From the IMG/VR virus record IMGVR_UViG_2693429642_000010: a stretch of DNA of 7,431 nucleotides. The stretch is one strand, 5' to 3'. This DNA comes from a virus. Taxonomy: Duplodnaviria > Heunggongvirae > Uroviricota > Caudoviricetes. The position numbers were made by a program, and so were the translations under genes. Below are positions 1,597 to 5,861 of the stretch, piece by piece (the stretch's first letter is position 1; every line of letters starts with the position of its first letter). The notes under the pieces are model-generated. The model ran no database searches. It was not told where the DNA came from and saw only the letters and a list, made by a program, of their open reading frames with translations.

Positions 1597-2267
1597 TGCT
1601 CCCCAAATACAAAACCAATTTCAGCCAGTGCCTCGTCCATTTTTTCGATGAACTCCGGCACCATCTCGTCAAAACTCGCCATGTACTTTTCATCCCGCTC
1701 AACCACGACATAATGCAGTCCTTCACGCTTCATACGCGGGTCATAGTTGGCAAAGTACCAGGCATCTTTTCGCGTCACCCACATGCTGTACTGCACCTGG
1801 GCCATGTAAGCCGACTTTATGGCCTCGAAACCACCGAGCCGGAACTTCATGAAATCCCGGGAGGTAAACGGGCATTTCAGCTCAAGGCCATTGCCGTCAC
1901 TGCATAAACCATCGGGAGAGCAGGCGGTGCGCATACTTTCGTCGCGATAGATGATCGGGGATTCAGTAACATTCACGCCGGAAGTGAATTCAAACAGGGT
2001 TCTGGCGTCGTTCTCGTACTGTTTTCCCCAGGCCAGCGCCTTAGCATTAACTTCCGGAGCCACACCGGTGCAAACCTCAGCCAGCAGGGTGTGGAAGTAG
2101 GACATTTTCATGTCAGGCCACTTCTTTCCTGAGCGGGGCTTTGCTATCACGTTGTGAACTTCTGAAGCGGTGATGACGCCGAGCCGTAATTTGTGCCATG
2201 CATCATCCCCCTGTTCGACAGCTCTCACGTCGATCCCGGTACGCTGCAGGATAATGTCCGGTGTCAT
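1587..2267 (-). CDS. exo: lambda-type exonuclease (Red alpha), 226 aa
   Basis: Translation [69 protein letters not shown]... matches my recollection of lambda Exo almost residue for residue. Same length (681 bp). Start overlaps the bet stop (ATGA at 2264-2267). Confidence 0.95.
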
Positions 2268-3049
2268 GCTGCCACCTTCTGCTCAGTGGCTTTCTGTTTC
2301 AGGAATCCAAGAGCTTTCACTGCTTCGGCCTGTGTCAGTTCTGACGATGCGCGAATGTCGCGGCGAAATATCTGGGAACAGAGCGGCAATAAGTCGTCAT
2401 CCCATGTTTTATCCCGGGCGATCAGCAGAGTGTTAATCTCCTGCATGGTTTCATCGTTAATCGGAGTGATGTCGCGTTCCGGCTGACGTTCTGCAGTGTA
2501 TGCGGTATTTTCGACAATGCGCTCGGCTTCATCCTTTTCATAGATACCAGCAAATCCGAAGGCCAGACGGGCACACTGAATCATGGCTTTATGCCGTAAC
2601 ATCCGTTTGGGATGCGACTGCCACGGTCCCGTGATTTCTCTGCCTTCGCGGGTTTTGAATGGTTCGCGGCGACATTCATCCATCCACTCGGTAACGCAGA
2701 TCGGATGATTGCGGTCCTTGCGGTAAATCCGGCATGTACAGGATTCATTGTCCTGCTCAAAGTCCATGCCATCAAACTGCTGGTTTTCATTGATGATGCG
2801 GGACCAGCCATCAACACCCACCACCGGAACGATGCCGTTCTGCTTATCAGGGAAGGCGTAAATTTCTTTCGTCCACGGATTAAGGCCGTACTGGTTGGCG
2901 ACGATCAACAATGCGATGAACTGCGCATCGCTGGCATCACCTTTAAATGCCGTCTGGCGAAGAGTGGTGATCAGTTCCTGTGGGTCGACAGAATCCATGC
3001 CGACACGTTCAGCCAGCTTCCCTGCCAGCGTTGCGAGTGCTGTACTCAT
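2264..3049 (-). CDS. bet: lambda-type single-strand annealing protein Beta (Red beta), 261 aa
   Basis: Translation [72 protein letters not shown]... matches lambda Bet as I recall it. 786 bp, as in lambda. Confidence 0.95.
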
Positions 3050-3054
3050 CCGTT

Positions 3055-3351
3055 TTATACCTCTGAATCAATATCAACCTGGTGGTGAGCAATGGTTTCA
3101 ACCATGTACCGGATGTGTTCTGCCATGCGCTCCTGAAACTCAACATCGTCATCAAACGCACGGGTAATGGCTTTTTTGCTGGCCCCGCAGCGTTGCAAAT
3201 GATCGATGCAGAGTGATTCAAACAGGTGCTGTGGAAGACCTTTTTCCATGTCGTCTGCCAGTTCTGACTCTTTCTCTTCACGGGCAATCTGCTGGTAGTG
3301 ACGTGCCCAGCTCAGAGCCTCAAGACGATCCTGAATGTAATAAGCGTTCAT
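3055..3351 (-). CDS. gam: RecBCD inhibitor Gam, short form only (98 aa)
   Basis: Translation [60 protein letters not shown]... matches lambda Gam from its internal Met onward. AGGAG Shine-Dalgarno 7 nt upstream (plus 3359-3363 reverse complement). In-frame stop upstream at 3406-3408 with no start codon between, so the long-form N-terminal extension is not encoded. Confidence 0.92.
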
Positions 3352-3426: not shown

Positions 3427-3633
3427 TTAGTGATTCAGGCCGTTACCGCGTCCGTCGAGAAAAACTTCCACGAGCAAATCACGGGTATAAGTGCGCTCGA
3501 TGCCGCGATGCAGATAAAGCCGTCCGCGTAAATTAGCTGATGCAGTCCAGGTACCATCTTTGTGTTTGACCAGCATTCCTGGCATGACCGCGCCGCGATT
3601 AACGGTCTGCGTTCCGTAATGTTGATGAACCAT
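3427..3633 (-). CDS. hypothetical small protein in the kil position (68 aa from the RBS-supported start; open frame extends to 3717 = 96 aa)
   Basis: ATG at 3633 has AGGAG 5 nt upstream (plus 3639-3643 reverse complement). The farther ATG at 3717 has only GAGG at 10 nt and adds a Pro/Gly-rich 28-aa extension. Sits immediately upstream of gam on the same strand, where lambdoid phages carry kil. No family recognised. Confidence 0.45.
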
Positions 3634-3904
3634 AAAAACTCCTGCCCGTAAGCTGGGCTGCTGAACATATAGAGACTTCTGCGCGTATTCAGGCGGTGGA
3701 TGGCCGCCGGTTGTCATAACTAAGCCGCCTCGTTGAAGCGACTAAGGTATGAAATGTTGAGTTGATTTCAGCTGGTCACACCGACGTTCACGCGTCCGTT
3801 TCACCCCTCGCACTCCCCGAAGCCTGCTGAAATTCAAACTGCGGATCTAAGCGGTCATCGCAACGGTGAATCAGGTAGTTGCCGTATCGTTGTGTTGTTG
3901 CGAT

Positions 3905-3990
3905 GAACCTATTTAAAACTATGGTTGTTTTATCGTCAACAACAAAAGTTGTTTTATTGGTTGTTTTAGATATAACTGGTTGTATTTAGG
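3905..3990 (-). promoter_or_regulatory. OL/pL-like leftward early promoter with operator repeats
   Basis: Minus strand reads TTGACG (-35, plus 3934-3939) - 16 nt - TTTAAA (-10, plus 3912-3917). Three TGGTTGT cores at 3922-3928, 3958-3964 and 3977-3983. The 17-mer AAAACTATGGTTGTTTT (3915-3931) lies between the -35 and -10 and is the exact reverse complement of a 17-mer at 4974-4990. Confidence 0.55.
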
Positions 3991-4080
3991 ATGGATTTAT
4001 TTTGTGACTTGAATCGCATAGCGATAACTGAAGCGAGGTTATGGTGGTTTTTTTAACGGTGTGTGTGATGAGGGGAGGGC

Positions 4081-4107
4081 AAAAGAAAACCCGGCACGGT
4101 GACCGGG
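4081..4107 (-). terminator. intrinsic terminator downstream of the repressor gene (t-imm-like)
   Basis: On the minus strand CCCGG-UCACCGUG-CCGGG (5-bp all-GC stem, plus 4090-4107) is followed by UUUUCUUUU (plus 4081-4089), about 120 nt past the repressor stop at 4229. Confidence 0.55.
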
Positions 4108-4228
4108 ATTCTTACGCCGTTAGGTAAAGATATTATTGCGGTGGCTTAATATTACTACCTAGAGCAAAGATAGGAATTAGTTCTTTACTGAATGAGCACA
4201 ATGCCCAGTTGATAATTTTTAATTGGTA

Positions 4229-4918
4229 CTACCCATGCTTCCTATATGTCTGCGGCATGCTCCCAATAACCTTACCGAAGATGAACACCCGGTTCATCTC
4301 GTCTTTCTCGATCGGGTCCCACGGTGAGTAGCTTTTGTTATCAGAGATGACCAGCAGCTTATCCTTCATCATTTGCAGGCGCTTTACATGGGCTGTGTCG
4401 TCGTACAGAAACGCATAGATACCATCACCGTCGAAAGATTTAACTGTGATATCAACGAACAGCAGATCACCTGGTTCGATCGTTCCTGACATGCTGTCAC
4501 CACGCACGTTAATGATGCGGATATTTTCCGCCTTCCTACCATCGAACATGTGACGAGCATCGTCAAACGAGTACTCAACCGAGCGTAGAACTTCTACAAA
4601 CTCACGGTTGATGACTCCCGGCCCAGCACTGACTTCTATATCAAGAACGTCAATCTTGAAGTATTTGGAATGGCTGACAGTTGATTGTATTGGTTGCACT
4701 ATACTGTCTGACATATTTCCAACGCCAGAAGATAACCATTCTGCGCGCACACCCAAAGCGTTCGCGATCTCCACGATTTTAGTTGTTTGATTAGCTTTCC
4801 CTGTTTCGATTTTCTGAATAGCAGCCTGGCTAACCCCGACCAAATCCCCAAGCGCCTTTTGTGTAAGGCCTCGCGCTAATCTGGCTTCTTTAAGTCTTTC
4901 TGAGAGTGTTGTTTTCAT
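4229..4918 (-). CDS. CI-type prophage repressor: N-terminal XRE-family HTH plus C-terminal S24 (LexA-like) autopeptidase domain, 229 aa
   Basis: MKTTLSERLKEARLARGLTQKALGDLVGVSQAAIQKIETGK... is a classic XRE helix-turn-helix. The C-terminal part has a candidate Ala-Gly autocleavage site (VSAGPG), the serine motif GDSMSG and the lysine motif HVKRL as in LexA/CI. Start at 4918 preferred over the upstream ATG at 4984, whose 22-codon extension has no RBS and would run through the operator region. Not lambda cI itself. Confidence 0.85.
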   Translation of the reverse strand: MKTTLSERLKEARLARGLTQKALGDLVGVSQAAIQKIETGKANQTTKIVEIANALGVRAEWLSSGVGNMSDSIVQPIQSTVSHSKYFKIDVLDIEVSAGPGVINREFVEVLRSVEYSFDDARHMFDGRKAENIRIINVRGDSMSGTIEPGDLLFVDITVKSFDGDGIYAFLYDDTAHVKRLQMMKDKLLVISDNKSYSPWDPIEKDEMNRVFIFGKVIGSMPQTYRKHG

Positions 4919-4924
4919 AGTCCA

Positions 4925-4995
4925 AATGTACAACCAAGGTTTTATTCCATCAAACGAAAATGGTTGTTGATTAAAAACAACCATAGTTTTAATCT
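4925..4995. promoter_or_regulatory. OR-like region with divergent pRM-like (leftward) and pR-like (rightward) promoters and three operator cores
   Basis: Cores: ACAACCA 4930-4936, TGGTTGT 4961-4967, ACAACCA 4977-4983. Rightward: TTGATT (4967-4972) - 15 nt - TTTAAT (4988-4993), with 17-mer AAAACAACCATAGTTTT (4974-4990) between them. Leftward: TTGATG (minus strand, plus 4948-4953) - 17 nt - TACATT (plus 4925-4930), ending 6 nt before the repressor ATG. Confidence 0.55.
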
Positions 4996-5022
4996 TGATT
5001 CAAATTAACCACGGAGGTTGTT

Positions 5023-5253
5023 ATGAACCCAGCTATCAAAACAGCGATCAATATCGTTGGTTCACAAAAGAAACTGGGCGCTGCTTGCGAAGTTTCACAG
5101 CAGGCCGTCTATAAGTGGCTTCACAACAAAGCAAAGGTATCCCCTGAACATGTCGGCAGCATTGTTACGGCTACTGGTGGAGTAGTGAAGGCATACCAGA
5201 TTCGCCCGGATCTTCCGGAGTTGTTTCCACACACCGAAAAGAACGCAGCTTAA
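5023..5253 (+). CDS. Cro-like small HTH regulator (76 aa), YdaS-type Cro analog
   Basis: GGAGG Shine-Dalgarno at 5013-5017, 5 nt before the ATG. Small basic protein with an HTH-like segment (QKKLGAACEVSQQAVYKWLHNK). Divergent from the repressor across the operator region. Not lambda Cro. Confidence 0.8.
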   Translation: MNPAIKTAINIVGSQKKLGAACEVSQQAVYKWLHNKAKVSPEHVGSIVTATGGVVKAYQIRPDLPELFPHTEKNAA

Positions 5254-5322
5254 ATTTCCATTTCACGCTCTTTAACAATAAGCAATCAACTTAACAGTCA
5301 ATTCAAACTAAAGGAGTCAATT

Positions 5323-5481
5323 ATGCAACCACTTACATACCAACAGACTAGCGGATTTAGCCCGACTGCGGTGATAAATCGTTCTCAAACAAAACAGGCG
5401 CCAGGCCACGAAAAATCCGTGATGCCGTTCGCGCCTGGTCGGCTGCAGATAATCAGGATGTTGTTGCCGCACTCATTGTGA
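5323..5481 (+). CDS. upstream ORF (52 aa), probably the frame-shifted N-terminal portion of the cII-position gene
   Basis: ATG at 5323 with a near-ideal AAGGAG Shine-Dalgarno (5311-5316) at 6 nt spacing. Reading frame stays open to TGA 5479-5481 and overlaps the alternative frame (open from 5361) for about 118 nt. Confidence 0.4.
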   Translation: MQPLTYQQTSGFSPTAVINRSQTKQAPGHEKSVMPFAPGRLQIIRMLLPHSL

Positions 5482-5861
5482 ATGAGTATCGGGAGCAGGG
5501 CGGCGGCACCATCGATTTCCCTGATGATGTCAGCCGTGCACGCCAGAAGCTGTTCCGCTTCCTCGATAACAAATTCGATTCTGAAAAATACCGAAATAAC
5601 GTGCGTGAACTGACCCCGGCAATTCTGGCGGTACTACCGCTGGAATATCGCGGCCACCTGGTTGAGCAGGATAGCTTCATGGCTCGGCTGGCTGAAATGG
5701 AAAAGGAACTCAGTGAGGCAAAGCAGGCGGTCATTCTCAACGCACCACGCCACCAGAAACTGAAGGAGATGAGTGAAGGCATTGTGTCGATGTTTCGTGT
5801 GGACCCGGATCTGGCTGGTCCATTAATGGCGATGGTTACCACCATGCTGGGGGCAATATGA
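5478..5861 (+). CDS. cII-position regulator, possibly YdaT-like (CII functional analog); C-terminal frame as called, 127 aa from GTG
   Basis: Long ORF ending in an ATGA overlap with the alternative O start at 5858. Its GTG start at 5478 has no Shine-Dalgarno and overlaps the upstream ORF stop (GTGA), and the frame is open back to 5361. Family assignment is from recollection and needs a profile search. Confidence 0.55.
   Translation: MNEYREQGGGTIDFPDDVSRARQKLFRFLDNKFDSEKYRNNVRELTPAILAVLPLEYRGHLVEQDSFMARLAEMEKELSEAKQAVILNAPRHQKLKEMSEGIVSMFRVDPDLAGPLMAMVTTMLGAI

Follow-up and report, generated by a model that had tools for sequence, protein, structure and literature searches.

A KilR-family kil gene of 68 codons preceded by a conserved leader RNA cassette in the early region of a lambdoid Escherichia coli prophage

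In this study, we have examined a small open reading frame at positions 3427-3717 (minus strand) of a 7,431-nucleotide stretch of viral DNA, IMG/VR record IMGVR_UViG_2693429642_000010, which is referred to here as the window. Our analysis indicates that this interval very probably carries a kil gene of the KilR family, whose 68-residue product starts at the ATG at 3633 and would inhibit FtsZ-dependent cell division upon induction of the prophage. The gene is an ordinary KilR-type division inhibitor gene and is already known, since RefSeq already names it. The part of the interval upstream of ATG 3633 belongs to a conserved leader RNA, and this leader is the less-charted item of the locus.

Results

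Locus and leftward transcript

The ORF list and a Pfam scan identify the window as early-region DNA of a lambdoid E. coli prophage. Encoded on the minus strand are exo (1587-2267), bet (2264-3049), gam (3055-3351; Pfam Gam, E 1.5e-62), the flagged ORF (3427-3717; 96 codons when read from the ATG at 3717) and an S24/HTH repressor, cI (4229-4984); genes of the cro/YdaS-like, YdaT-like and O-like types are found on the plus strand. The resulting gene order is cI, pL, kil, gam, bet, exo. The original prediction placed the ORF directly upstream of gam, and this is confirmed, with 75 nt between the kil stop codon and gam, the next gene downstream. Of 24 related loci, 21 likewise have Gam-Bet-Exo or RecE/RecT genes downstream of kil, and the order in Rac is identical. 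The 487 nt between the flagged ORF and the repressor gene contain no sizeable ORF; no N-like ORF was found between the repressor gene and kil (3742-4228), and lambda-type Red genes are present. PhiR34_1 and Turner, which are functional phages, have the same leader as the window, and the design of the left arm therefore seems to be N-independent.

A candidate pL (TTGACG-17 nt-TTAAAT) is located at 3939-3911 on the minus strand; we treat this promoter as inferred, because it was read by eye and the automatic scan made no call. Together with a repeated operator motif, TGGTTGTTTTA, it spans 3911-3968 (minus strand). The motif is directly repeated at 3922, 3941 and 3958 and is found again around pRM/pR (4971-5027). 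Upstream of pL, the terminator scan detected an intrinsic terminator that ends the cI transcript (4090-4107, minus strand). Given this candidate pL, kil would be the first ORF of the leftward operon.

Several other features of the region are also recorded here. Where the leftward transcript is predicted to begin (3765-3906, minus strand), there are two large stem-loops, with arms at 3906-3897/3864-3855, which enclose a CA-rich loop, and at 3833-3823/3775-3765. This stem-loop region and the first 150 nt of the pL leader, which raised the idea of a put-like element, are 94-99% identical in relatives. We also considered an anti-sRNA (AgvB-like) role for the CA-rich loop and rejected it, as there was no Rfam match and the literature examined places no such RNA here. 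On the plus strand, a perfect rrn-type boxA (CGCTCTTTAACAA) is found at 5266-5278, 13 nt after the cro stop codon, and no obvious boxB hairpin follows it. The YdaT/cII-like gene (5323-5861, plus strand) is broken into two ORFs that overlap each other (5323-5481 and 5478-5861). In a near-identical RefSeq locus, this gene is marked as frameshifted and the integrase as having an internal stop, and for this reason the prophage may be defective. Phage PhiR47_2 (L002, 1176-2604) carries a GevT/GevA toxin-antitoxin pair between its repressor gene and the terminator of that gene, which is the rexAB position of lambda; the corresponding point of the window (about 4184) is empty.

Family assignment of the product

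The original prediction described the protein as unrecognised and without a known family, a description that did not survive the profile searches it had proposed as a check, since these placed the protein in the KilR family at once. PHROG 294 ('Kil protein for bacterial septation inhibition') matches the window protein with E values of 1e-38 to 1.3e-37, with residues 1-68 covering profile positions 13-80. Rac KilR matches the same profile (E 7.5e-35), and both proteins begin at profile position 13. By BLASTP, the window protein shares 36% identity with Rac KilR (E 3e-12), and Met29 of the 96-aa reading is aligned to Met1 of KilR; its identity to the phi80 'FtsZ inhibitor protein Kil' is 41%. 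The Pfam family PF27398, in precomputed assignments, is found on homologues of the window protein and of Rac KilR alike, and our own scan, with a Pfam version lacking PF27398, gave no match for the protein. NCBIfam NF008465 'FtsZ inhibitor protein' also gives a match (E 2e-17), at 63 bits against a curated cut-off of 92 bits. Judged by these scores, the protein belongs to a sister subfamily of the Rac-type KilR proteins, because it does not reach the NF008465 cut-off. Profile, pairwise similarity, size (the family spans about 65-75 aa), fold and operon position all agree with membership of the KilR family, and a PDB sequence search returned no match.

The relationship to lambda Kil is different. 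No BLASTP alignment between lambda Kil and the window protein was obtained at E<=100, and lambda Kil falls into separate PHROGs (3924/2461), so that homology to lambda Kil was rejected. Because the protein matches PHROG 294, KilR and phi80 Kil and does not align with lambda Kil, we interpret it as a KilR-type protein in the lambda kil position. The earlier suggestion of a division inhibitor analogous to Kil is thus supported through homology to the family of Rac KilR and phi80 Kil, and the relation of the protein to lambda Kil is one of analogy rather than homology. The accompanying suggestion of an anti-defence function found nothing in its support, including any match to families of this kind.

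The gene is neither rare nor nameless. RefSeq WP_000233576.1, a 68-aa protein with the same extent as the window kil, bears the name 'phage encoded cell division inhibitor protein' in thousands of genomes, and kil with its leader (334 nt) is present in 2252 of 5426 complete E. coli genomes (about 40%). The family has few members, all of them in enterobacterial phages; an exhaustive search of 1.84 billion representatives gave 66 matches at E<=0.001. We found no experiment on the subfamily of the window protein in the literature searched.

Structure prediction, which had also been proposed as a check, gave a confident AF2/AlphaFold model of a small six-stranded beta-barrel, in which pLDDT falls over the last 8-9 residues. 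After the last strand, the protein ends in a flexible, glycine-rich C-terminal tail of 9 residues (DGRGNGLNH). The published model of KilR agrees with this picture, having a beta-rich core and an unstructured C-terminal tail (PMC12482147), and the core residues common to the subfamilies of the window protein and Rac KilR are kept. Apart from a single related phage protein, a BFVD structure search returned generic barrels; the modelled fold is a generic one and is uninformative on the target.

Coding status and start codon

The original prediction left the start codon ambiguous, between a 68-aa ORF with a strong RBS and a 96-aa form from a weaker start. Both in-frame ATGs do exist, at 3633 and 3717, and the difference between their RBSs is as described: a Shine-Dalgarno sequence, AGGAG (3639-3643, minus strand), is separated from ATG 3633 by a 5-nt spacer and is unpaired in the centroid fold, whereas ATG 3717 has only GAGG about 10 nt upstream. 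The ambiguity itself is resolved to the 68-aa form by a comparison with 24 loci from other genera, including Citrobacter, Kluyvera, Leclercia, Klebsiella and Scandinavium, and by the 154 leader variants described below. All 24 loci keep the ATG equivalent to 3633, encode products of 67-68 aa and have a purine-rich Shine-Dalgarno sequence 6-10 nt 5' of the kil ATG. In half of them (12/24) an in-frame stop lies 1-26 codons upstream of the kil ATG, with no start codon between. The N-terminal extensions that appear in database gene calls of homologues bear no relation to one another; the 68-aa form is the one annotated in RefSeq and in the HK225 record, and long forms are annotated in some phage records. 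Selection has clearly acted on this frame, since the median dN/dS is 0.11 (173 pairs among 21 orthologues from different genera), indicating strong purifying selection, and variable columns number 30, 25 and 62 at codon positions 1, 2 and 3. On the strength of the ATG and Shine-Dalgarno sequence in 24 of 24 loci, the upstream stops in 12, the unrelated extensions and the selection by codon position, these comparisons identify the 68-aa form from ATG 3633 as the conserved product. The kil coding sequence, that of a KilR-family cell-division inhibitor, accordingly occupies 3427-3633 on the minus strand (68 aa plus stop).

A leader RNA cassette upstream of kil

The 28-codon in-frame 'extension' (3634-3717, minus strand) is leader RNA and not conserved coding sequence. 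It overlaps a conserved three-hairpin RNA cassette (3644-3754, minus strand) that is also found at L003 2464-2600, at L241 1501-1640 and in many IMG/VR loci. All elements of the cassette are on the minus strand. Hairpin 1 (3715-3751) is identified by RNAalifold, covariation and a single-sequence fold. Hairpin 2 (3692-3708; GGCGG-CCAUCCA-CCGCC) is nearly invariant, its rare changes being C to U substitutions that still allow a G.U pair and a single change in the loop. A conserved box, GCGCAGAAGUC (3674-3684), is present in most cassette variants, in a reading frame that differs among them, and hairpin 3 (3644-3658; GCCC-AGCUUAC-GGGC) lies directly 5' of the kil Shine-Dalgarno sequence, a place taken by different short GC hairpins in other variants.

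Among 30 non-redundant variants, RNAalifold assigns 14 pairs to hairpin 1, of which 7 show compensatory changes; 98.2% of the cells are paired and the covariation score reaches 0.373, whereas controls with the partners displaced by 1-3 columns give 33-48% and 0.02-0.07. The basal stem pairs CAUA with UAUG, and ATG 3717 is therefore buried in the hairpin. Because many of the pairs are U.G, the structure is assigned to the sense RNA of the leftward transcript. When the window sequence is folded by itself, the three hairpins are recovered, and the kil Shine-Dalgarno sequence and ATG 3633 stay open.

The cassette is not tied to kil. A block of about 63 nt around ATG 3717 (3692-3754) is 85-97% identical in HK225, phi80 and phages of Enterobacter, Klebsiella and Salmonella, the flanks of the block differing among those phages, and in four of the genome loci it is found 300-1200 nt 5' of kil, unjoined to the gene. 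Two scans of viral contigs revealed more than 150 distinct cassette contexts. In their layout an intrinsic terminator usually comes first; then follow CAUACC, hairpin 1, UUAGUU-AUG-ACAACC and hairpin 2, a segment that varies, the box GCGCAGAAGUC, a short GC hairpin, and the Shine-Dalgarno sequence and start of the next gene, whichever gene this is. In 154 variants the ORFs from the equivalent ATG run from 11 to over 130 codons (133+); they stop short of the next gene, run into it out of frame or are fused to it. Two variants precede the same kil start with the leader ORF out of frame, and in one variant a 1-nt deletion downstream of the ATG changes the frame. Since ORF length and frame vary in this way, a 1-nt deletion occurs and the frames of the box differ, the 96-codon reading is an accidental in-frame junction of leader RNA and kil.

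Other identities of the leader were considered. The ORF from ATG 3717 begins MTTGGHPPP, which could point to a leader peptide with a polyproline stall; this was rejected as the main reading, because changes are mostly non-synonymous, the variant with a 1-nt deletion exists, the frames of GCGCAGAAGUC differ, and ORF length and frame are free. A nut site was rejected as well, since the sole good boxA match is the one downstream of cro (5266-5278) and the phi80 element lies after N, not before it. No Rfam model matched the leader element near its gathering score, the best reaching 10-18 bits against gathering scores of 35-70, and neither alignment nor BLAST detected similarity between the window leader and the Rac kilR/KilS region, KilS being an annotated sRNA in the Rac kilR leader of E. 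coli K-12 (L004, 6406-6503). In phi80 the cassette is placed directly after N, between the rho-independent terminator tL1A and the rho-dependent terminator tL1B, and the region is annotated only as the tL1 terminators. Our observations suggest that lambdoid phages place a portable leader before whichever gene follows N/tL1, here the toxic kil, and that the 5' part of the flagged interval is noncoding. We tentatively propose, and hold it somewhat less probable than its converse, that the cassette is an undescribed cis-regulatory RNA that controls or limits kil and other post-N genes; it could, for example, contribute to a Rho-dependent attenuator, serve as a processing site for RNase III or gate translation.

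Discussion

The founding and experimentally studied member of the family is KilR of the cryptic prophage Rac (E. coli K-12 b1352, 73 aa), which shares its PHROG and Pfam families with the window protein and aligns with the latter from Met1. Both proteins have a beta-rich core with flexible ends and both are encoded early-left, upstream of a recombination module. Rac KilR causes filamentation and loss of the Z-ring, and these effects are suppressed by extra FtsZ (PMC12482147; PMC5793797). Filamentation and Z-ring loss are seen at low dose, while high dose leads to cell rounding and mislocalisation of MreB, and toxicity is rescued by extra FtsZ but not by MreBCD (PMC12482147). The C-terminal tail is essential and its length sets potency; without its last three residues, Rac KilR still causes filamentation but cell rounding is abolished (PMC12482147). 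In a lysogen, Rac kilR is silenced by Rho/NusG, with relief through OxyS (PMC5793797). In gene context the two differ, as the window kil is found beside gam-bet-exo as the first ORF after pL, whereas Rac has recET, with the sRNA KilS and sieB upstream.

Phi80 Kil (PHI80_42, 69 aa) is annotated as an FtsZ inhibitor, and its tail is similar to that of the window protein (DGHGNPLTH in phi80). The phi80 pL operon also has the same RNA cassette upstream of kil. It differs in having N, nutL and tL1A before the cassette, whereas the window is without an N ORF, and in two small ORFs between the cassette and kil. Lambda Kil (47 aa) resembles the window kil in its place beside gam in a Red-type early-left operon and, with its FtsZ-directed division inhibition (PMC12482147), in the role proposed for the window protein, but not detectably in sequence. 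ZipA is required by lambda Kil and not by Rac KilR (PMC12482147). With other small FtsZ inhibitors, SulA and T7 Gp0.4, the window Kil would share a functional analogy only; these are described as non-homologous proteins with different predicted structures (PMC13423816).

On the analogy with Rac KilR, we infer that the likely function of the window protein is inhibition of FtsZ-dependent division early after induction. Upon induction, the S24-type repressor would be lost and the leftward early promoter would fire, producing a transcript on which kil would be the first ORF, ahead of gam-bet-exo. Kil would then act on FtsZ and block formation of the Z-ring, leading to filamentation of the host while the phage replicates. 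At high dose, disturbance of MreB would be a further possibility, and MreB is thus possibly also inhibited by the window protein. The in-frame ATG at 3717, for its part, belongs to the structured leader RNA and does not give rise to a conserved protein extension.

Several alternative explanations were weighed against this model. A chance open frame in a non-coding leader might be suspected from the shortness of the ORF and from the lack of a family in the Pfam version scanned, but the low dN/dS with its third-position excess, the profile matches and the confident AF2 model leave such a reading practically no probability, and we consider it already refuted by the comparative data. It is also very unlikely that the true or an additional product is a 96-aa, N-terminally extended Kil isoform from ATG 3717. 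The frame is indeed open from 3717, this arrangement is retained in many E. coli prophages and phages, and some phage records list long forms. Against such an isoform, the extension has no counterpart in other genera; in most of the 154 variants, including leaders before the same kil start, translation from the equivalent ATG would meet a stop after 11-60 codons or enter the next gene out of frame; the deletion variant alters the frame; ATG 3717 and its weak GAGG lie inside a hairpin supported by covariation; and RefSeq uses the short form.

A shift of target within the KilR family is likewise unlikely in our view: the protein may not act on FtsZ, may act on FtsZ without an effect on MreB, or may have another host-takeover or anti-defence role. 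Its identity to the experimentally studied protein, Rac KilR, is only 36%, and its score remains below the curated subfamily cut-off. In addition, the tail, on which the function of Rac KilR depends, has a different sequence and is three residues shorter (9 versus 12); the 12-residue tail that Rac KilR needs for full toxicity and cell rounding is not found in the window protein, and the truncated Rac KilR that filaments without rounding lacks just as many residues (PMC12482147). On the other side, the core residues and the operon position are conserved in both subfamilies, no match to defence or anti-defence families was found, and the annotators of phi80 and RefSeq call members of the subfamily division inhibitors, although they too relied on homology. 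A KilR-type inhibitor of FtsZ-dependent division is therefore the reading that we prefer.

In summary, little changes for the gene itself, which is a common and already-named prophage gene. The correct product has 68 aa, in contrast to the forms of 82-128 aa listed in several phage records and produced by many automatic gene calls. The 5' end of the flagged interval falls within the leader RNA cassette, and this cassette may explain the silencing of toxic early-left genes. The window protein also represents an abundant sister subfamily of KilR whose tail is shorter than that of the only studied member, and it is therefore naturally suited to testing the reported separation, by tail length, of FtsZ inhibition from MreB inhibition.
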